This document shows, in pieces, positions 1,965 to 61,481 of a stretch of DNA of 64,000 nt. The stretch comes from Bacteroides fragilis (GTDB lineage: Bacteria > Pseudomonadota > Alphaproteobacteria > Rs-D84). The notes beneath the pieces were generated by a model. The model was given only the letters and a program-made list of their open reading frames with translations, did no database searches and was not told the origin of the DNA. Position 1 is the first letter of the stretch; every line of letters starts with the position of its first letter. The stretch covers positions 859-64,858 of the forward strand of contig CAVGNU010000004.1 of the NCBI GenBank assembly GCA_963630775.1, in the 5' to 3' direction. Position numbers and translations under genes: made by a program.

Positions 1965-4250
1965 TTAAAACTGTGTTTCAAATGACAGCAAGAATCGACG
2001 TTCACGGTCGTATTCATTCATGTGCAGTGGCCAACCCCAACTGAAATTCATCGGCCCCATTGGTGTATTCCAATAAATACCGAACCCAACCGATGTGCGC
2101 AGGTCACTGTCGATAAAGTTACTGCGTGTTGCGCCATACACATTGGTGTATGTGTATTCGTCACGTGGTGGCTTGCCCAAGATACCGTAATCGGCAAACA
2201 CAAATCCCTTTATCTGGTATTCGTCTGGGATAAACACTGGGAAATTCAGTTGTGTTGAACCGTTCAATTTCCACATGCCACCCAACGAATACGATGTATA
2301 GAACCAGTTACGACTGCCAACGCCGGCGATATCAAACCCACGCAGCGATTCGCCACCCAAGAAATAGCGGTACACACGCGATACGTAATCGCCGTCCAGT
2401 GGTTGAATATACCCGAAATCCAGCGACGAACGCAACTGCCACCGGTCATCCAAGAATTTGACCATACCGGTAATGTCCGCACTGTAACGCATGAATGTTT
2501 CGCTGCCACCGAATCCGGTATATGCCAGCCCTAAATTTGCAACAACACCAGTGTGCGTGTTCTGTTGGAAATTGGTGTTCAGGTTATAGTATTTCAAATA
2601 TGTGGCCAACGTGTATAATGTGGAATCGCGCCACCCACCCACGGTTTGCAGGTCATAGTTTTGGTCAAATGCCGCCGACAGGCGCACCGTCTGTGACCAG
2701 TTGTCGGTCAATTTCCAACCCATACGCCCCGCGATTGTCAGCGAGTCGCGATCATACCCCAAACCGCCCAATGACGAATAGTTATACATTGTGTACGATA
2801 CATCAAAACCGCCCGACAGTGCGCGTCCAAACAAATAAGGTTCGGTGAAACTGAACAACGCCTGTTTTTGATACTGGGCGATTGACCCGCGCAGTTGAAC
2901 AATTTGGCCACGTCCCATAAAGTTGTTCTCGGTAATGCCCGCATCAACCATAAACCCATTGATGTTCGACCACCCAAAACCACCCGACAGTTCGCCCGTC
3001 GGTTGTTCTTCGACCTTGATATCCAGATTCATCATATTTGCATCGGCCAAGCGTGTTGGCACCATCTGAACATCTTTGAAATAACGGGTACGCATCAGAT
3101 TCTGGCGACCCTGTTCAATGGTTTGTAGTGAAAACGGATCGCCCGCGCGCATCGGCAGCAACTGTTGAATAACGGTATCAAACGTGCGAACGTTGCCCAA
3201 AATATTGATAGAATTCAGGTAAATACGATTGGTCTTTTGAATTTTGAACGTAATATCAATCGTGTGCGCATCGCTGTTTTTGGTTGGCACGGGTTCAACA
3301 TTGATAAATGCATAGCCATGATCGGCAACCGCCCCGCGCAGGGCCGATATCGTTTCATCAACCAGATCAATATTGTACGTGTCGCCCGCCGACATTTTGA
3401 CCACTTTGCGCAGTTCGTCCGTTGATACGTCTGGGAATGGATTGTCTATGTCCAGTTTGCCGAATTTATATTGCTGCCCTTCGTCCACGTTGAATGTTAC
3501 CGAATAATACTGGCGATCGGGCGTGAAAACACCGGTTGCATCAGTCACGGCAAAATCCGCATAACCGTTGCGCAGATAGAATTGACGCAACATCTGTTGA
3601 TCGTATTGAATACGGTCTTCGTCAAAAACATCAAACTGGGTCATGAACCGCCACCACGCGTGTTCACGCGACAGAATTTCACCACGCAGCGTGCGGGCAC
3701 TGAATTTCTTGTTTCCCGCAAAGTCAATGTCGGTGATGTATGTTGGGTGCCCCTCTGTAATTTCATAGACAACGTTCACGCGATTGTCATCCAATTCAAT
3801 GCGTTTCGGTTCTATTTTTGTGCCAAAAAACCCCTTGCGCTGGTATATGGTCAGCATGCGTTGGACGTCCGCGCCAATGGTCGATTCATCAAATGCCGCA
3901 CGTTCTTTCAGGCGAATTTCTTTCTTCAAATCATCGGTGGAAATTTCATCGTTCCCTTCGACCGTTACCATATTGACAGTTGGGGCTTCGACCAGGTCAA
4001 TTTTCAACACATTGCCGGACATGCGAACGTTGATTTTCGAAAAGTACCCACTTTCCTGTAACCTTTTTGCAATTTGGTTGGCGCGGGCCTCGCCCACGGT
4101 GTCGCCGATTTTAACATCGGACAGAATACGCACCGATTCAGCGTCCATACGGCGATTGCCCGATACGTCAATTCGCGATACGGTTGCCGCATTTGCACCC
4201 GTCGCCGCGACGGTCAGTGTGATTGCCAAAAATAATTTCTTTGTATTCAT
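1965..4250 (-). CDS. bamA: Outer membrane protein assembly factor BamA (Omp85)
   Basis: 761 aa with signal peptide MNTKKLFLAITLTVAATGANA, POTRA-like N-terminal repeats and a C-terminal beta-barrel ending ...SFETQF. It lies directly downstream of rseP, as in the conserved cluster. Confidence 0.95.
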   Translation of the reverse strand: MNTKKLFLAITLTVAATGANAATVSRIDVSGNRRMDAESVRILSDVKIGDTVGEARANQIAKRLQESGYFSKINVRMSGNVLKIDLVEAPTVNMVTVEGNDEISTDDLKKEIRLKERAAFDESTIGADVQRMLTIYQRKGFFGTKIEPKRIELDDNRVNVVYEITEGHPTYITDIDFAGNKKFSARTLRGEILSREHAWWRFMTQFDVFDEDRIQYDQQMLRQFYLRNGYADFAVTDATGVFTPDRQYYSVTFNVDEGQQYKFGKLDIDNPFPDVSTDELRKVVKMSAGDTYNIDLVDETISALRGAVADHGYAFINVEPVPTKNSDAHTIDITFKIQKTNRIYLNSINILGNVRTFDTVIQQLLPMRAGDPFSLQTIEQGRQNLMRTRYFKDVQMVPTRLADANMMNLDIKVEEQPTGELSGGFGWSNINGFMVDAGITENNFMGRGQIVQLRGSIAQYQKQALFSFTEPYLFGRALSGGFDVSYTMYNYSSLGGLGYDRDSLTIAGRMGWKLTDNWSQTVRLSAAFDQNYDLQTVGGWRDSTLYTLATYLKYYNLNTNFQQNTHTGVVANLGLAYTGFGGSETFMRYSADITGMVKFLDDRWQLRSSLDFGYIQPLDGDYVSRVYRYFLGGESLRGFDIAGVGSRNWFYTSYSLGGMWKLNGSTQLNFPVFIPDEYQIKGFVFADYGILGKPPRDEYTYTNVYGATRSNFIDSDLRTSVGFGIYWNTPMGPMNFSWGWPLHMNEYDRERRFLLSFETQF

Positions 4251-5342: not shown

Positions 5343-5993
5343 TTACAACATAATCAGCCAAACCAAGGGCAGGGCATAAATCCAGCCATCGAACCGATCC
5401 AGCATTCCGCCGTGCCCTGGTAAAATATGACCAAAATCTTTGATGCCCATACGACGTTTTATCCAACTGGCGGTCAGGTCACCATATTGGCTCAGTAACG
5501 CGATACTAATCCCAATCCACATCAGTTGTGGCATAAATGTATCAGTGCCCAACAACCCATACAGCAACGCCATAAATGTCCCACATATAATACCAGCAAT
5601 CTGGCCCGCCCATGTCTTGTTCGCGGACAAGCGTTCCCACATCTTGTCCCCGCCCAACATACGGCCAAAGAACCATGCGCCAATGTCCGCGCCACTGATT
5701 GTCACCAGCAGCAACAGAACAATCCATGGACGCGTTGCCACGGTATTTATCGCCGCCAACATCACAAATAACCACACCAAGAACCCGCCATAGACCAGCC
5801 AATTTTTATTTTGGCACAACTGTTCTTTTGGTACATGACGAATTGCCATAATCATTTCCAGAATCATACCCAGTACGACCAAAATCCCCAGATAGCGTAC
5901 CGCATGGAATCCATATTGTTCCGCCACCGCGGCCGCGACCACCACCGCCGCCATAATTGTGCCAACGATAATTCTCTGTGATGTGTTTGACAT
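5343..5993 (-). CDS. cdsA: Phosphatidate cytidylyltransferase
   Basis: Multi-TM protein with C-terminal signature SQYGDLTASWIKRRMGIKDFGHILPGHGGMLDRFD. I placed the start at ATG 5993 (AAGGGG RBS), which avoids overlap with uppS; the ORF track extends to 6059. Confidence 0.88.
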   Translation of the reverse strand: MSNTSQRIIVGTIMAAVVVAAAVAEQYGFHAVRYLGILVVLGMILEMIMAIRHVPKEQLCQNKNWLVYGGFLVWLFVMLAAINTVATRPWIVLLLLVTISGADIGAWFFGRMLGGDKMWERLSANKTWAGQIAGIICGTFMALLYGLLGTDTFMPQLMWIGISIALLSQYGDLTASWIKRRMGIKDFGHILPGHGGMLDRFDGWIYALPLVWLIML

Positions 5994-6003
5994 ATCAAAC
6001 CCC

Positions 6004-6765
6004 TTATTTTTGTTTGCCAGAATAATTCGCCTTTTTTCCGCCACCAAATCTGCGGTCACGATGCGCGTATTCGTCCAGTGTGTGCTGCCACATCCGTTCG
6101 TCTTTGACCAAATCAGGCCAGTGTTCAGGTACGAACATCAGTTCGGCATACGCCAATTTCCACAGCAAGAAATTAGAGATTCTAAATTCATTGCTGGTGC
6201 GAACCATCAAATCAATCGGTAACAAATCGCCCGTATCCAAGAATGTTTCAAACGTTTCGCGGGTAACAGGTTTGCCGGCGGCAACCGCGGCATTGACCGC
6301 GTCAATAATTTCGCCCTGACCACCATAGTTCAATGCAAACACAACTGTGCCACCGGTGTTTTCAGCCGATGTTTCTTCCAGTTTATCGCACATATGTGCC
6401 AATCGTTTTGGCAAACGGTCACGCGAACCCACCACACGATAGCGCAAGTTTTTTTCAAGCGCGTGCTGCATATTCTTTTTTAATTCTGTATAGAACAAGT
6501 CCATCAGATAATCCACTTCTTCCTTGGAACGATTCCAGTTTTCGGTGGAAAATATAAAGAACGTTACCGTGGATACGCCGCGCGCAATGTACCAATCAAC
6601 CAGATTTTCAAAGTTTGCAATTCCGGCCTTGTGTCCCAACAACGGGGGCAGACCGCGGGCCTCGGCCCAGCGGCGATTACCGTCGCATATAAATGCGATA
6701 TGCTGTGGTACGCGCACAGGGGCGCTGGCGACATTATTTACCTTCTTTTTGAATATTCTAAACAT
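6004..6765 (-). CDS. uppS: Undecaprenyl diphosphate synthase
   Basis: HIAFICDGNRRWA and FLLWKLAYAELMF signatures. ATG at 6765; the track's TTG at 6777 is an alternative start. Confidence 0.93.
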   Translation of the reverse strand: MFRIFKKKVNNVASAPVRVPQHIAFICDGNRRWAEARGLPPLLGHKAGIANFENLVDWYIARGVSTVTFFIFSTENWNRSKEEVDYLMDLFYTELKKNMQHALEKNLRYRVVGSRDRLPKRLAHMCDKLEETSAENTGGTVVFALNYGGQGEIIDAVNAAVAAGKPVTRETFETFLDTGDLLPIDLMVRTSNEFRISNFLLWKLAYAELMFVPEHWPDLVKDERMWQHTLDEYAHRDRRFGGGKKANYSGKQK

Positions 6766-7546: not shown

Positions 7547-7623
7547 GCGGATGTAGCTCAGTTGGTTAGAGCACTGGTTTGTGGTACCAGGTGTCGCCGG
7601 TTCGAATCCGGTTATCCGCCCCA
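7547..7623 (+). tRNA. tRNA-His (anticodon GTG) with encoded G-1
   Basis: 8-bp acceptor GGCGGATG/TATCCGCC including G-1:C73. Anticodon loop is TTGTGGT, T-loop is TTCGAAT, and CCA is encoded. Confidence 0.95.
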
Positions 7624-7634
7624 TTTTAACAGAA

Positions 7635-7662
7635 AACGTCAACCGAAAGGTTGGCGTTTTTT
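7635..7662 (+). terminator. Intrinsic terminator after the tRNA-Ala/tRNA-His pair
   Basis: aacgtcaacc-gaaa-ggttggcgtt hairpin followed by a T-run. Confidence 0.7.
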
Positions 7663-7900
7663 GTTAAACCGGTTCGTCTATTCACCGGATTCGAACCGAG
7701 GTTCGCTTACGAGTAAGCGTGGCAAGTTGTATAACGCCGCCACGCGCTAACGAGTGGTGAGCGCAGCGAACAATACGCAGCTGTCCAGCATTGCTGGACA
7801 GCAAGGCACTCGGTTATCCGCCAGCCGAATTGCTGCCCGCCGTTCAGGCGGGTATTTTTAATAATTCTGGGCGGGTCGGATTCGAACCGAGGAATGGGAA
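7663..7900 (+). repeat. tRNA-3'-linked repeat element (about 1.5 units), same family as 51096-51659
   Basis: ggattcgaaccgagg occurs at 7687-7701 and again at 7878-7892, 191 bp apart. Blocks gagtaagc, gctaacg, gtgagc and acgcag are colinear with the tRNA-Arg-linked unit. There is a perfect hairpin at 7780-7802. A 12-nt copy of the tRNA-His 3' end (cggttatccgcc) lies at 7811-7822. Confidence 0.65.
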
Positions 7901-48895: not shown

Positions 48896-49290
48896 AATTC
48901 CCCTCCATTGGGCCCCGCAAAATTGATAAATTTTGTGGGTGATTCCTTGGAGGGGTGTCGCACGCAAGTGCGACGGGGAGGGTTGCTGTTTAGTGATAGA
49001 GTGACATAGTTATATAGTGATGATAAAGGTTTAGAATATAGAACTTAAAGAACGTGTCGCCTGCGGACTGTGTGTTTTATGCATTATTAGCACTATTGTC
49101 ATTCCTGCGCAGGCAGGAATAGGGGCTAAGCAGTGCGAACGCAGTGAGCCAAATAAAAGAACCCTCCCCGTCGCTTTCGCGCTACCCCTCCAACGGAGGG
49201 GAATTTAGTACGTTCTAGAAAAAACTTGTCATTCCGTGGCTTGACCACGGAATCTAGGTGATATTAAAGGTGCGCCATCGGCGCACATAA
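48896..49290. repeat. Mosaic cluster of short palindromic elements (modules E/D, B-F-E', C-G)
   Basis: E is ttcccctccattgg...ccttggaggggtgtcgcacgcaagtgcgacggggagggtt, interrupted by D (ggccccgcaaaattgataaattttgtgggtg, 48911-48941). B is ttgtcattcctgcgcaggcaggaatagg (49096-49123). cccctccaacggaggggaa lies at 49185-49203. C is at 49226-49258. G is gtgcgccatcggcgcac (49270-49286). Confidence 0.8.
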
Positions 49291-49940: not shown

Positions 49941-50718
49941 CCAAGCATTTTTCCAAGATTTTCTTTTCATCATCGGTGCGTTCGGCATCGGCGGACGCGT
50001 CGCGCCCCAGAATCCCAACGCATGATTTGAAATAGTTATCGTCCGGACACGCAAAGCATTTCTGCATCAAACTGGCGGAATATTTTGTGTATGTTTCCTT
50101 GGCCACACATCGTTTTTCTGTCTGATCCCAGAATTGCGTCCCAGAATCACACTTTACGCAAATATTGTTGGCGCTGATACCCTGATATTGGGTTGTTTCG
50201 CACGCAACACATGTGTTGGATGTGGCGGATTCAAATGCCTGAACATTACCGCACGGTTCAATACATGCGCTGTTACGTTTTATCGTCCCCGTTGGACAGT
50301 TGTCTGGCACAGTGCATTCAACCTCTGATATCGTGTTGCCACAAACGTCTGTGACAACCTCGTACGTGCATTTACCACTGGTCAACTGTTTTTCTGCGGT
50401 TGTACGTATTTCCCATGTTGTGCCTTCAACAAATTTACCCGCTTCGCTCAGTGTGCCATTACAACACCAGAATGTCCGCCCATTATGGGTAAAAGATTGG
50501 TGGTGATAGTACCAGTTTTTTTTGTTTTTTTTGATTGCCTTGTTTCCACGGCACGATTGTGTTTGTGCGCCACAGAACCAGTATTCATCGCTCTTGAACC
50601 AACTGCCGCCATCATCACACCAGCATTCGTTATTATATCCCTCATAAAACTTTGCATCGGCATTACCGGCCATAAACAAGCCAATCAGTATGGGCAGAAT
50701 GAATTTGCTTTTTGTCAT
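49930..50718 (-). CDS. Cys-rich exported protein (262 aa, 31 Cys) with C-x2-C-containing repeats
   Basis: Signal peptide MTKSKFILPILIGLFMAGNADA. The repeats include CPTGTIKRNSACIEPC, CVACETTQYQGISANNICVKCDSGTQFWDQTEKRC and CFACPDDNYFKSC. Confidence 0.65.
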   Translation of the reverse strand: MTKSKFILPILIGLFMAGNADAKFYEGYNNECWCDDGGSWFKSDEYWFCGAQTQSCRGNKAIKKNKKNWYYHHQSFTHNGRTFWCCNGTLSEAGKFVEGTTWEIRTTAEKQLTSGKCTYEVVTDVCGNTISEVECTVPDNCPTGTIKRNSACIEPCGNVQAFESATSNTCVACETTQYQGISANNICVKCDSGTQFWDQTEKRCVAKETYTKYSASLMQKCFACPDDNYFKSCVGILGRDASADAERTDDEKKILEKCLVKN

Positions 50719-50809
50719 TTTGTTTTCTCTCCATTGCAGCGCGTAGCAACGTACTTATTATCACCATAATAATACGTTAAATTACACTTTTTTGCAATCA
50801 CAATTTATG

Positions 50810-51095
50810 TTCATTGTCATTCCGTGGCGCGCCCACGGAATCTAGGTTATGGTGTTGCGCCATCGGCGCATATATTTGTCATTCCTGCTCCGGGCCCCGC
50901 AAAATCGTAAGATTTTGTGGGTGGGCAAAGGCAGGAATAGAGACTAAGCAGTGCGAACGTAGTGAGCCAACCAAAAGACCACCTCCCCGCTACGCGGTAC
51001 TCCTCCACAGGAGGAGAACTTGCTACGTTCTTGTCGCGGGCTAAGTTCCCCTCCGGTGGAGGGGTGTCCGCAGGACGGGGTGGTCTTTTTATCTT
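50810..51095. repeat. Second mosaic cluster of the same palindromic modules (C-G, B with nested D, F-E', E)
   Basis: C is at 50814-50846 and G at 50855-50870. B arms at 50876-50888 and 50931-50940 are split by D at 50892-50924. F is gactaagcagtgcgaacgtagtgagccaa. E-left-like ttcccctccggtggaggggtgtc lies at 51046-51068. Confidence 0.8.
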
Positions 51096-51659
51096 TGGGC
51101 GCGCCCAGAAGGATTCACTCGACCGTCGGATTGAAAATCCGCCGTGTCTGCGTGGCATTCGTGACGGCTCGCCTGCGTTAGCACTTGGCTTACCTACTCA
51201 TTGTCGAACCCTCTGGTCGGGTTCGAACCCACGGGCACACAACAATTTAATGAAAAACACCGCACAAGGCGGTGTCCTTCATTAAACTGGCGCGCCCAGA
51301 AGGATTCACTCGACCGTCGGATTGAAAATCCGACGTGTCTGCGTGGCATTCGTGACGGCTCGCCTGCGTTAGCACTCGGCTTGCCTACTCATTGTCGAAC
51401 CCTCTGGTCGGGTTCGAACCCACGGGCACACAACAATTTAATGAAAAACACCGCACAAGGCGGTGTCCTTCATTAAACTGGCGCGCCCAGAAGATTCACT
51501 CGGTATTTGCGCGTGTGCACAAATACCTGCGTGGCATTCGTGACGGCTCGCTTGCGCTATCGCTTGGCTTGCCTACTCATTGTCAAACCCTCTGGTCGGG
51601 TTCAAATCCTTGGACGCACAGCATAAATTAAACCGCCGACAAAGCGGCGGTTAAATTCA
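51096..51659 (-). repeat. Three tandem ~190-bp units, each ending (in tRNA orientation) with a copy of the tRNA-Arg 3' end (20 nt in units 1-2, one deletion in unit 3)
   Basis: Units are 51096-51287, 51288-51478 and 51479-51659 (the third is diverged). On the plus strand units 1-2 begin with tggcgcgcccagaaggattc, identical to 51660-51679 of tRNA-Arg; unit 3 begins tggcgcgcccagaagattc, a 19-nt copy lacking one g. Each unit also contains the hairpin cgtcggattgaaaatccgacg, the T-arm-like gggttcgaaccc and a terminator-like hairpin acaccgcacaaggcggtgt. Confidence 0.88.
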
Positions 51660-51736
51660 TGGCGCGCCCAGAAGGATTCGAACCCTCAACCTTCTGATCC
51701 GTAGTCAGATGCTCTATCCAATTGAGCCATGGGCGC
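51660..51736 (-). tRNA. tRNA-Arg (anticodon ACG)
   Basis: The reverse complement folds with acceptor GCGCCCA/TGGGCGC, anticodon loop CTACGGA, T-loop TTCGAAT and encoded CCA. Confidence 0.95.
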
Positions 51737-51792
51737 AACGGTCTTACATTCTATACAATTTTATTCCGATTGCAAGAAAAAATAACACTTTT

Positions 51793-52389
51793 TTATCGGC
51801 TGCCATGTCCGTGGTCACCCGTTCCGTGGTACAGTATGTTGAAATGCTGGCGGCAAACGGATTTATAATTACTGTCGCCGACCGCAATTTGCGCGCCCGC
51901 CCGTACGACGTTGCCGTTCGCGTCAAACCGCAAATGATGCGTCGCCAAATGCATACAGCCCTGAATCTGGCACGTGGATTCCAAGCGGTGCAGTTTCGCG
52001 CCAACCTCTATCAATCGGCGTGACGCGGGGAAAATATGTTCGTTGCTGTCCACCATCAGACCATAGCACATGACGATAATCGGGTGATTCTTGTTATCGG
52101 CAATTTTGACCAAGCGGTCAATGTCTGCGGGGCTGAAAAATTGCACCTCGTCAATCAGCACAATTTTTGTCCGTGGATTTGGCGTATAGTCCACCAAAGT
52201 TTCACGCACGGTCGCCGGTGCAGAAATTCCGATTCGCGAATCCACGTGATCTGCGCTGAAACGGTTATCTGTCTTTGGCTTTATGATTTCGGTCGGGTTG
52301 CCGTTTTTCGCCTGATTATACGCGTTGATAATCAGTTGCGCGGATTTTGAGCACCCCATCGTGCCATAGTGAAAATGCAATGTTGCCAT
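51793..52389 (-). CDS. tdk: Thymidine kinase
   Basis: P-loop GTMGCSKS, Walker B VLIDEVQFF, and a C-terminal Cys cluster (C..C...C). Confidence 0.92.
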   Translation of the reverse strand: MATLHFHYGTMGCSKSAQLIINAYNQAKNGNPTEIIKPKTDNRFSADHVDSRIGISAPATVRETLVDYTPNPRTKIVLIDEVQFFSPADIDRLVKIADNKNHPIIVMCYGLMVDSNEHIFPASRRLIEVGAKLHRLESTCQIQGCMHLATHHLRFDANGNVVRAGAQIAVGDSNYKSVCRQHFNILYHGTGDHGHGSR

Positions 52390-59990: not shown

Positions 59991-61481
59991 ATGCTGCACA
60001 CATCGGACTTTGATTTTGAATTACCAACCGAATTGATTGCATCGCACCCATTGGCGCGTCGCGATGCATCCCGTATGCTGGTGGTAAAACATTCCCCTCC
60101 GTTGGAGGGGTGTCGCGAATGCGGCGGGGGGGGCAGAGATTCCGTAAATTACAGAACATTGCCGTTTAACAGCGAATTAAAAGAAAAAGCACGCGCTTTG
60201 CGTCATGCCGGCAGTTTGCCAGAAGCACTGTTGTGGCAAGAAATCAAAAATCATCAACTGAACGGATTGGATTTTGACAGACAGAAAATCATTGGTAATT
60301 ACATTGTTGACTTTTTCTGTGCATCCAAGTTTGTCGTTATAGAAATAGATGACAAGGCAACACATGATTTGAAAGCAGAATCCGATGCCGCACGCGATGA
60401 ATATATGCGTGGTTTGAATCTGACTGTTATACGAATACCAGCGGCGGATGTGTTGAAAGATGCGCATGCGGTTTATCTGTGGCTTTCTAACCACCCCGCC
60501 TTGCAGGCACCCCTCCAACGGAGGGGAACTTGTGTTGATCTGTCGGATCGGCATATTCGGGATTTTTTGGATTATATTCGCCCAGGCGATGTGGTGGTGT
60601 TTAACAATTCGCGTGTGATTCCGGCGCGCTTTGATGCGACCGACACGGCGGGGCACGAATATGAAATCACACTGCACACCGCCGCAGGCGGCAAACTGTG
60701 GTGGGGCCTGTGCAAGAAATTCACGCGCATTGCGGTTGGCGATACATTGAGCATGACCGACGGCACGCAAATCCGCGTGGTGGATTCTGACGCCGACAGT
60801 GGTCTGAAACTGGAATTTTTATGTGATGATGTGTTCGCGGTTCTAAATAAAATCGGCAAAATGCCATTGCCACCGTACATGCATCGTGATCAGGAAGATT
60901 CCGACCGTGAACGGTATCAGACCGTTTATGCGGATCCAATCGGGTCAATGGCGGCCCCAACGGCTGGATTGCACTTTACACCCGAATTGATGGACGAAAT
61001 CGCGCGTCGTGGTGCACAGATTGTCAAGGTTACCCTGCACGTCGGCGCGGGTACATGGATGCCTGTCAAGACCGAGGATTTAACCCAGCACAAAATGCAC
61101 AGTGAATGGTGTCAGATTACGCCCGCACAGGCGGACATTATAAACAATGCAAATCGCGTTATTGCGGTTGGAACGACATCGATGCGTACACTGGAAAGTG
61201 CGGTAATACGCAACCGTGTGTTGCCGGAATCCCAGCGTTGTCGCCGTGTTGTGCCATTTTGCGATACAACCGATATATTTATTACCCCTGGGTACGCGTT
61301 TGGGGCGGTGGACGTGTTGCTGACGAATTTCCATTTGCCAAAATCGACACTGTTTATGTTGGTTTCGGCGTTTGCGGGCCTGAATGAGATGAAGACCGCA
61401 TACGCGCACGCGGTGGCGGAAAAATACAGATTCTTTTCATACGGCGATTGTTGCCTGTTATTCAAAAAGGATGCACAATGA
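59991..61481 (+). CDS. queA: S-adenosylmethionine:tRNA ribosyltransferase-isomerase QueA, interrupted in frame by a DUF559 cassette
   Basis: From ATG 59991 the translation is MLHTSDFDFELPTELIASHPLARRDASRMLVV. QueA homology resumes at ~60535 (LSDRHIRDFLDYIRPGDVVVFNNSRVIPARF ... GTTSMRTLES ... LLTNFHLPKSTLFMLVSAF). At ~496 aa it is much longer than the ~350 aa typical size. The track start at 59898 overlaps era. Confidence 0.9.
   Translation: MLHTSDFDFELPTELIASHPLARRDASRMLVVKHSPPLEGCRECGGGGRDSVNYRTLPFNSELKEKARALRHAGSLPEALLWQEIKNHQLNGLDFDRQKIIGNYIVDFFCASKFVVIEIDDKATHDLKAESDAARDEYMRGLNLTVIRIPAADVLKDAHAVYLWLSNHPALQAPLQRRGTCVDLSDRHIRDFLDYIRPGDVVVFNNSRVIPARFDATDTAGHEYEITLHTAAGGKLWWGLCKKFTRIAVGDTLSMTDGTQIRVVDSDADSGLKLEFLCDDVFAVLNKIGKMPLPPYMHRDQEDSDRERYQTVYADPIGSMAAPTAGLHFTPELMDEIARRGAQIVKVTLHVGAGTWMPVKTEDLTQHKMHSEWCQITPAQADIINNANRVIAVGTTSMRTLESAVIRNRVLPESQRCRRVVPFCDTTDIFITPGYAFGAVDVLLTNFHLPKSTLFMLVSAFAGLNEMKTAYAHAVAEKYRFFSYGDCCLLFKKDAQ
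60092..60533 (+). mobile_element. TIR-bounded DUF559 (Vsr-like/restriction-endonuclease-fold) cassette inserted in frame in queA
   Basis: Perfect 21-bp inverted repeat: ttcccctccgttggaggggtg (60092-60112) and cacccctccaacggaggggaa (60508-60528). The interior encodes SPPLEGCRECGGGG followed by LKEKARALRHAGSLPEALLWQEIKNHQLNGLDFDRQKIIGNYIVDFFCASKFVVIEIDD..H...D..RDEYMRGLNLTVIRIPA, which is the DUF559 pattern. Exact boundaries are uncertain by a few nt. Confidence 0.72.

Follow-up and report, generated by a model that had tools for sequence, protein, structure and literature searches.

A tandem array of tRNA-linked repeats with a conserved structured core behind tRNA-Arg(ACG) of an uncultured gut alphaproteobacterium

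The tyrT 178-bp repeat of E. coli was reportedly described by Egan and Landy in 1978, the rtT/RttR RNA is said to have been reported by Bösl and Kersten in 1991, and the count of 22 tRNA-linked repeats (TLRs) at ten K-12 loci reportedly stems from Rudd in 1999. The first description of TLRs dates from 1978 and the catalogue of 22 copies from 1999; these are spread over ten K-12 loci, with one to five at each (PMC8144298). [quoted passage not shown] 2021, PMC8144298). The E. coli relatives are expressed as RNAs: rtT and RrA/B/F are read through with the upstream gene and processed to a discrete RNA (PMC8144298), RrA, RrB and RrF being situated behind 5S rRNA (Stenum et al. 2021, PMC8144298). 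TLRs, including those of E. coli, are still without a known function, and their conservation has been reported within the Enterobacteriales only (PMC8144298).

For comparison with the units described below, the region 1286300-1287900 of E. coli K-12 was read side by side with them. The unit at tyrT-tyrV consists of a spacer, GGGGAAGGATGAGAAGCTTC, GACCAA, GGTTCGA, a core of about 65 nt and AATCCTTCCCCCACCACCA, where GGGGAAGGATGAGAAGCTTC is a degenerate antisense copy of the tRNA-Tyr 3′ end and AATCCTTCCCCCACCACCA represents the last 19 nt of the tRNA. One such unit lies between the two tRNA genes and three lie after them; one is annotated as RttR. The Rfam RtT model scores all four of these units at 133-137 bits.

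The window, by which is meant the whole 64,000-nt stretch of DNA analyzed here, possesses an array of this kind behind tRNA-Arg(ACG) (51660..51736, minus strand; ARAGORN and Rfam), a gene with an encoded CCA. A sequence scan reveals a promoter-like site for this tRNA, TTGCAA-16-TAGAAT, at 51748..51775 (minus strand); it is the sole promoter-like site upstream of the units on the array strand, and scanning of that strand revealed no internal promoter within the units. Three units follow head-to-tail, each closing in a copy of the tRNA-Arg 3′ end, and unit A begins at the first base past the CCA of the tRNA. Read in the tRNA sense, the order of parts is a terminator-like hairpin, an antisense arm, a 7-nt loop, sense GGGTTCGA, a core of about 86 nt, and AATCCTTCTGGGCGCGCCA. 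The antisense arm is a degenerate copy of the last ~30 nt of the tRNA (e.g., GTGCCCGTGGGTTCGAACCC), sense GGGTTCGA corresponds to the 5′ strand of the T-stem plus the T loop up to about nt 58, and the closing AATCCTTCTGGGCGCGCCA comprises the last 18-20 nt of the tRNA, from T loop nt ~58/59 through CCA.

All parts are located on the minus strand. Unit A (181 nt, tRNA-proximal, 51479..51659; 66.5 bits and E 6e-15 with the covariance model R1 introduced below) contains a terminator hairpin (51631-51652), the antisense 5′ arm (51598-51619), the loop (51591-51597), sense GGGTTTGA (51583-51590), a type-I core made up of J1, Pa, J2, Pb and J3 (51497-51582), and the 3′ arm AATCTTCTGGGCGCGCCA (51479-51496). 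The middle unit B (191 nt, 51288..51478; R1 65.6 bits, E 1e-14) starts with a long terminator-like hairpin (51437-51477), followed by the antisense 5′ arm (51410-51431), the loop (51403-51409), sense GGGTTCGA (51395-51402), the type-I core (51307-51394) and the 3′ arm AATCCTTCTGGGCGCGCCA (51288-51306), which together with the two preceding bases reproduces the 20-nt tRNA end exactly. The distal unit C (191 nt, 51097..51287; repeat search and R1) has the layout of B, with its core at 51116-51203 and a 3′ arm (51097-51115) that ends in CCC instead of CCA. Tandem Repeats Finder reports a period of 191 with 2.7 copies and 91% matches over 51098-51603, the repeat search finds four copies of the 20-nt tRNA end at spacings of 191, 191 and 181, and conserved unit pieces of 25-32 nt occur three times in the window where none is expected by chance.

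ARAGORN, Tandem Repeats Finder and the repeat search thus bear out the three head-to-tail units ending in the tRNA 3′ end that the original prediction had proposed, although its lengths of 192, 191 and 181 become 191, 191 and 181. It had also recognized two near-identical units and a third with an internal replacement, and this is what is found: B and C differ at four positions (98% identity), whereas A has a different terminator hairpin, a different Pb hairpin and a one-base deletion in its tRNA-end copy. An exact 20-nt end, claimed for two units, is present in the middle unit (20/20) and not in the distal one, which, owing to its CCC, matches at 19/20; the missing g correctly reported for the proximal unit, where the copy is 19 nt with one deletion, is on the plus strand and amounts to one C of a T-stem strand. 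The T-arm-like “gggttcgaaccc” does derive from the tRNA, as part of the antisense copy of its last ~30 nt, after which the sense GGGTTCGA follows. The supposed anticodon-arm-like hairpin has to be abandoned, being the variable Pb of the core, which gives way to unrelated hairpins in other species as well as in the proximal unit.

Within the units the only ORFs are those generated by the repeat itself, and the flanks of the array encode TK, an M48 peptidase, an M23 peptidase, an OMP and GroEL; inspection of ORFs and flanks revealed no recombinase or transposase beside or between the repeats of the window. A palindromic element of approximately 115 nt (50975..51090, minus strand; MFE -69.8 kcal/mol) abuts the distal end of the array; it lies outside the TLR units and delimits the array. 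ARAGORN and Rfam do not call the units tRNA, tmRNA or YrlA, and recognize only five true tRNAs in the window; no Rfam family matches the units at gathering thresholds or at E <= 10. Certain cues, namely GGUUCGAC and a ...UCCACCA end in two loci (L009, L013), led us to consider a piece of tmRNA. This was rejected since the real two-piece tmRNA is elsewhere, the permuted two-piece tmRNA of the clade being a separate gene (L011), and the units match neither Rfam nor ARAGORN.

The type-I cores share a single plan. One grammar accommodates all 20 cores of the first round: J1 GACAAnnAGUA, hairpin Pa, J2 GUYASGnnUGCCnCGnA, hairpin Pb, and J3 GAGYG. J2 may also be written GUYASGnnUGCCnCGCA, with Pb extended by a junction helix, Pc. 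Pa and Pb vary in sequence between cores, and Pb also varies widely in length, whereas the junction sequences are invariant; the result is about 30 near-invariant nucleotides around two freely varying hairpins. In an alignment of 36 sequences the structure derived by hand has 94.3% of its cells paired, compared with 80.2% in shuffles, none of 500 of which reached the observed value, and a covariation score of 0.446 against 0.18 in shuffles; sliding the registers lowers pairing to 28-43%, and changes on both sides are seen in 12 of the 19 pairs. The covariance model R1 was built on this alignment with the window sequences excluded, and it scores the three window units at 65.6-66.5 bits (E ~1e-14). 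A larger set of 126 unique cores reveals six Pa positions that are 95-100% canonical with three to four pair types each (shuffles, 46-91%), Pb pairing that is 67-99% canonical, and a variable base of J2 that pairs with the variable base of J3 (Pc X-Y) as C-G in 70 cores, A-U in 25 and G-C in 20. Of 20 units, 16 fold better on the tRNA-sense strand. These data show that purifying selection acts on the type-I fold, best on the tRNA-sense strand; the type-I core is a new, clade-specific structured module.

Covarying hairpins as such would also be expected of a single-stranded DNA substrate. The variable dinucleotides of J1 and J2 are correlated, yet do not fit simple base pairing. A hammerhead or other small ribozyme was rejected, as J1 and J2 do not fit the hammerhead core on inspection and Rfam gives no match.

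The arms present a less uniform picture. In the window units the ~140-nt stretch bounded by the 5′ arm and CCA yields folding z-scores of -3.9 and -4.2. A 7-bp acceptor-like helix with a GCCA overhang can form between the 5′ arm and the 3′ end copy of units A-C, using G·U pairs that are possible on the tRNA-sense strand only. Family-wide, arm pairing is weakly supported, with the S2 hairpin in 77 of 124 units and an S1 duplex ~2 kcal above controls. A long hairpin of the 5′ and 3′ arms was therefore rejected as a general feature, though it forms in the Arg(ACG) units; these have a clear tRNA-like end as well, which likewise is not general. No covariation was found between the two T-stem strands across the core in the 126 unique cores, and a closed T arm with the core in its loop was discarded on that ground.

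The same elements are found well beyond the window. Exact-pattern scans of one genome per species gave matches in gut and rumen alphaproteobacterial MAGs (Candidatus Enterousia, “uncultured Rickettsiales,” and RUG/RGIG/UBA bins), always directly 3′ of a tRNA. A gapped pattern written from the core grammar, and hence independent of tRNA context, finds the type-I core at no fewer than 120 loci (at least 120), nearly all from the gut/rumen clade of Alphaproteobacteria. A same-strand tRNA is present within 1500 nt upstream (<=1500 nt) of 104 of 146 type-I cores, the core usually starting 70-90 nt past the tRNA. That copies would abut tRNA genes and carry tRNA-end segments was the outcome that the original prediction awaited of a tRNA-linked element, and the finding favors one. 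At least 17 tRNA species precede type-I cores, and tRNAs with matching arms include Arg ACG/CCG/TCT/CCT, Met, Lys, His, Glu, Ser, Gln, Pro, Leu, Tyr and Val; behind tRNA-Arg(CCG) and tRNA-Arg(TCT) the arms copy those tRNAs instead. Up to five loci occur in a single genome among those sampled, copy number varies between arrays, and the final units are often truncated. At the syntenic locus, ordered thymidine kinase (tdk), tRNA-Arg(ACG), array, Cys-rich secreted protein, different species carry one to four units in which three interchangeable terminator types are combined with two unrelated core types, mixed arrays included.

Many of the type-I “orphans,” i.e., cores lacking a same-strand tRNA, are found beside tRNA-Pro(TGG) in the opposite orientation, each flipped unit starting with the antisense of the tRNA-Pro 3′ end; recombination between inverted arms would explain these cores. 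Other orphans follow a tRNA 3′ stub preceded by direct repeats of the island-arm type, suggesting that at those loci genuine integrative elements have entered between a tRNA and its array. One free-standing core (L211) lies in sense orientation behind an extended -10 promoter.

The scaffold is not restricted to type-I cores. A second TLR locus in the window, recognized by reading of its layout, occupies 7624..7892 (plus strand, as are its parts) behind tRNA-His(GTG) (7547-7623). It consists of a terminator (7635-7658), an antisense T-arm copy (7684-7698), a sense AGGTTCG (7699-7705), a distinct core designated “type III” (7706-7810), a copy of the tRNA-His 3′ end, CGGTTATCCGCC (7811-7822), and a second, partial antisense arm (7868-7892); the layout is that of the Arg units and the core is different. 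In other genomes a type-II core is found behind Met, Lys, His, Glu, Ser and Arg(CCT) tRNAs, set within T-loop and 3′-end copies of the local tRNA. Our first type-II pattern, of only 17 nt, was not long enough, and chance accounts for most of the 120 loci that it gave; 20 of 22 type-II cores have a same-strand tRNA within 1500 nt upstream (<=1500 nt). The type-II core has a conserved fold as well, and the same scaffold is thus used by several unrelated core families.

Sequence divergence distinguishes the history of the loci from that of the copies within them. Tandem copies have a median identity of 95%, whereas copies behind different tRNAs of the same genome are at a median of 71%, copies behind the same tRNA in different genomes at 74%, and the background at 70%. 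Because identity is high only among tandem copies, dispersal is old, with the loci inherited vertically and copy number changing locally and recently. These data show that each locus persists vertically over long time, and that copy number has changed locally and recently while terminator and core modules were shuffled between species. Amplification and shuffling are consistent with unequal homologous recombination between the repeated tRNA-derived segments.

Taken jointly, the observations are probably best explained by three TLR units built on a tRNA-end scaffold, with a new structured core, from which RNA is released out of the tRNA transcript. By analogy with E. coli rtT and RrA/B/F, transcription of the units would start at the tRNA promoter and continue past leaky terminators. 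The tRNA-end copy may then act as a maturation or stability signal for the tRNA-processing machinery, and an RNA of ~140 nt would be released by the machinery that processes tRNA and rRNA 3′ ends, as surmised from the same precedents. The conserved core junction would presumably be the working part, binding a putative partner. Two of the alternatives in the original prediction, a tRNA-like small RNA co-transcribed with tRNA-Arg and an array amplified by unequal recombination, each come close to this explanation. Transcription of the distal units may be weak, because a strong symmetric terminator-like hairpin starts each unit and internal promoters are lacking, and co-transcription with the tRNA cannot be universal, because the type-I core is reversed at the tRNA-Pro(TGG) loci.

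The main rival is a formerly mobile DNA element with single-stranded DNA hairpins. It holds that the units are, or once were, a non-autonomous element whose core inserts in the T-loop of tRNA-end copies by means of an enzyme supplied in trans, which we regard as unlikely. Its corollary, that the hairpins are recognition structures in single-stranded DNA, as in attC, REP and IS200-type ends, rather than RNA, is rated no higher. Such an element would account for cores at a constant point of the T-loop with GA on both sides (...TTCGA|CAA...GAGNG|A...), but the flanking GA is equally explicable by the T-loop sequence and the conserved ends of the core. It would also suit the occurrence behind many tRNAs, with arms made from each local tRNA, and in either orientation relative to the tRNA; yet copies of one genome are 71% identical against 70% for unrelated ones, giving no sign of recent transposition, and no transposase or recombinase lies next to the arrays. 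J1 holds GTAG and then a hairpin, as REP sequences do, and DNA hairpins tolerate G-T wobble too; the E. coli relatives, by contrast, are expressed as RNAs (PMC8144298). No terminal inverted repeats were found in the type-I core and near-identical dispersed copies are missing from the same genome, which also sets the units apart from MITEs. A split core flanking an ORF was not seen in ~1.9 Mb of loci, and the type-I grammar has no match in viral contigs.

Related candidates were set aside as well. REP/RAYT and guide RNAs (a TnpB omega-RNA-like scaffold with a 3′ guide, or an IS110 bridge RNA) appear unlikely: an associated protein gene was not seen, sizes and patterns of conservation are a poor match, and recent mobility is absent. 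A phage or plasmid origin was rejected on the viral-contig result for type I, the single type-II viral match being due to chance. The tRNA junction coincides with an 18-nt primer-binding extent; tRNA-primed reverse transcription is mentioned as a mere thought on origin.

It is in our estimate quite improbable that the units are neutral relics, that is, tandem duplications of tRNA plus terminator which lost most of the tRNA body, have no function and were kept similar only by gene conversion and unequal crossing-over. Variable copy number, truncated final units and shuffled modules are all in keeping with this, as are 3′ arms nearly identical to the tRNA, such as gene conversion would maintain, and E. 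coli TLRs that lack a known function. Neutral decay, however, does not predict invariant junctions and compensatory stem changes over at least 120 loci, at least 17 tRNA contexts and many species, nor a core that is not derived from the tRNA body, nor several unrelated core families on one scaffold.

Very improbable is the view that the repeats are decayed att sites (attL/attR, CIME-like) left by integrase-bearing islands that repeatedly entered tRNA-Arg. Integration at a tRNA gene classically leaves direct repeats of the tRNA 3′ end, and islands are probably present in three loci (L144, L178, L244), where repeats of TCCCTGTAAATWCCCTG stand beside a tRNA 3′ stub; there, however, the putative real att identity block is shorter (~8-10 nt) and parts the tRNA from its TLR array. 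No integrase is present, the same unit recurs at the syntenic locus in many species, and the identical E. coli layout has not been ascribed to integration. The DNA between the repeats is a covarying fold, with compensatory changes of a kind that att arms lack. The integration scar or tRNA-dependent miniature mobile element put forward in the original prediction finds no support: there is no recombinase flanking the array and no copy in viral contigs, the fold covaries, inter-locus identity (~71%) equals background, and the junctions of the three putative islands look different and lie between tRNA and array. An assembly artefact, in which a single unit was expanded by the assembler, is scarcely credible, for while metagenome assemblies can mis-resolve tandem repeats and B and C are 98% identical, A differs in terminator, Pb and one deletion, B and C differ at four sites, and independent MAGs carry one to four units, mixed core types included. 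Covariation, the divergence pattern and the cross-species data together disfavor the neutral relic, the att scars and the artefact.

Returning to TLR units on a tRNA-end scaffold as the preferred reading, compensatory evolution at 120 or more loci (at least 120) and behind at least 17 tRNA species argues for selection and against junk. The type-I family offers what was missing for the E. coli family, an alignment deep and diverse enough to derive structure, invariant nucleotides and mutants for testing. A further, tentative proposal, to which we give rather less than even credence, is that TLRs are an old and widespread scaffold for small structured RNAs and the type-I core a new functional RNA class; if so, the core would be a small ribozyme or an RNA that binds a protein or ligand, and gut Alphaproteobacteria would carry several to many copies of it in each genome. 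Gamma- and alphaproteobacterial units share the junction at T loop nt ~58/59, the antisense copy and, in some units, GAUGAGAA; if this reading is true, the shared features point to one generating mechanism or to a shared requirement, such as maturation by tRNA enzymes. For annotation, a tRNA 3′ end repeated ~150-200 bp downstream, beginning at the AATCC of the T loop and preceded by an antisense copy, should be taken as a TLR and not as an att site.

Among known systems, att duplications and CIMEs resemble the array in that the 3′ end of a tRNA is directly repeated past the gene, at times in tandem. They differ in that the window array has no recombination module and holds ~170 bp of conserved fold between its repeats, and in that its repeat begins within the T loop and comes with an antisense copy, the array being inherited vertically at a syntenic locus. 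The tRNA-like domain of tmRNA, YrlA and 3′ETS-leuZ have in common with the units that they are non-tRNA RNAs with acceptor-end features or an origin in a tRNA precursor, whereas the window units are recognized by neither ARAGORN nor Rfam and possess no conserved closed T arm. The Rfam family RtT (RF00391) covers this scaffold too, beginning at the 5′ antisense arm and ending at CCA, and its consensus pairs both arms, but it is a sequence family distinct from the window units and the type-II units. Its model has no match in the window at gathering (45 bits), and none at E <= 10 over 50600-52000 or on a type-II array; R1 in turn has no match in the E. coli RtT units, and a blastn search against 5,426 E. 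coli genomes found nothing. Sequence homology to E. coli RtT, being undetectable by RtT, R1 or blastn, was rejected. The motif GAUGAGRA of the E. coli RtT 5′ arm does recur in the 5′ arm of alphaproteobacterial units, 12 of 124 having it where chance would give 0.2%, which hints at a common ancestry or a common constraint.

The closest likeness is to the TLRs of E. coli, a precedent (TLRs, the tyrT 178-bp repeat, RtT) that is the match missed by the original prediction. Both are situated directly 3′ of a tRNA in one to five head-to-tail copies per locus, and in both the last 18-20 nt equal the upstream tRNA 3′ end with the same start in the T loop (AATCC...). The tyrT units follow the same order of spacer/terminator, antisense arm (some with GGATGAGAA), loop, GGTTCGA, core and AATCC...CCA, and in both groups several loci per genome are associated with different tRNAs and different cores. 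They differ in that the E. coli cores have no detectable sequence similarity to the type-I core, that the host of the window is an uncultured gut alphaproteobacterium and not an enterobacterium, and that the window units are parted by strong terminator-like hairpins and carry a larger core for which covariation is documented. The window array thus displays every structural feature of a TLR and lies outside the RtT sequence family, which places the TLR architecture, with a different core, in a class distant from the Enterobacteriales. That a tRNA end is repeated behind its tRNA has had a precedent since 1978; what is new is the second bacterial class and the structural constraint.

The scaffold of the tRNA-linked repeat (TLR) units is found in the window at a second tRNA gene and carries more than one kind of core. 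The sequence behind tRNA-His(GTG) (window 7624-7892, plus strand) is a TLR-type unit in which the terminator is followed by an antisense copy of the T-arm, a sense AGGTTCG, the core and CGGTTATCCGCC, the 3′ end of tRNA-His; a partial second antisense arm comes after it. The core of approximately 105 nt is distinct from the others, its grammar being loosely like that of type I, and was named "type III." This unit was not detected by R1, the covariance model of the type-I core.

Related loci from other genomes reveal further core types and composites built on the same scaffold: a "type IV" core (GCCGTAGGCGAAAGGGACCC...; L244, ~3740-3860), a composite unit of 251 nt (L117, 4853-5103) and a joined pair of type-I cores that lacks arms (L213, ~6500-6650, minus orientation). 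At the tRNA-Pro(TGG) loci (L142, L165, L194, L225, L236, L008 [~7467, minus orientation], L009, and L013) the type-I core is opposite in orientation to the tRNA. In each of these units TGGTCGGGGCGA, an antisense version of the 3′ end of tRNA-Pro, comes first, and an extra hairpin lies on the right side, between the antisense and sense T-loop pieces. The array of L194 includes a type-II core in tRNA-sense orientation alongside the inverted type-I core. A free-standing type-I core, lacking tRNA-derived arms, is present in L211 (4700-4870, minus strand), with an extended −10 motif, TGGTATAAT, approximately 45 nt upstream. Downstream of the core lie a long (CA)n tract and, approximately 230 nt further on, a terminator.

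A unit in L011 (1-230) is a hybrid: it is preceded by a 3′ end of the tRNA-Arg(ACG) type and has a 5′ arm of that type, while its own 3′ arm, GAATCCGCCGGGTGCGCCA, is the end of tRNA-Arg(CCG). This combination suggests that TLRs of different tRNA loci have recombined. Three arrays (L144, oriented ~5990-6060; L178, ~6100-6160; L244, ~3640-3720) start at only a tRNA 3′ stub (...CTCCGCCA) preceded by direct repeats, TCCCTGTAAATWCCCTG. These repeats resemble the arm-type sites of an integrated element, one that separated the tRNA and its TLR array.

Within type-I cores the variable dinucleotides at J1 positions 6-7 and J2 positions 7-8 are strongly correlated (UG with AA, n=55; CA with GU, n=29; GC with AU, n=18) in a pattern that does not match simple antiparallel pairing. 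Lineage structure could account for this, as could a tertiary contact.

The distal end of the tRNA-Arg(ACG) array, where the CCA of the last unit is CCC, is directly adjoined by a near-perfect palindromic element of approximately 115 nt (window 50975-51090, minus strand; MFE −69.8 kcal/mol). Partial copies recur elsewhere in the window (60490-60531, 60092-60114, and 49184-49208), and the element looks like a member of a separate family of small palindromic repeats. On the strand opposite to the array, two plus-strand ORFs of 91 (window 51201-51476) and 79 (51392-51631) amino acids run through the repeats. The repetition itself produces these ORFs, as it does the "tpr" ORF inside RttR, the small RNA annotated in one tyrT/tyrV TLR unit of E. 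coli, and they are probably not genes.
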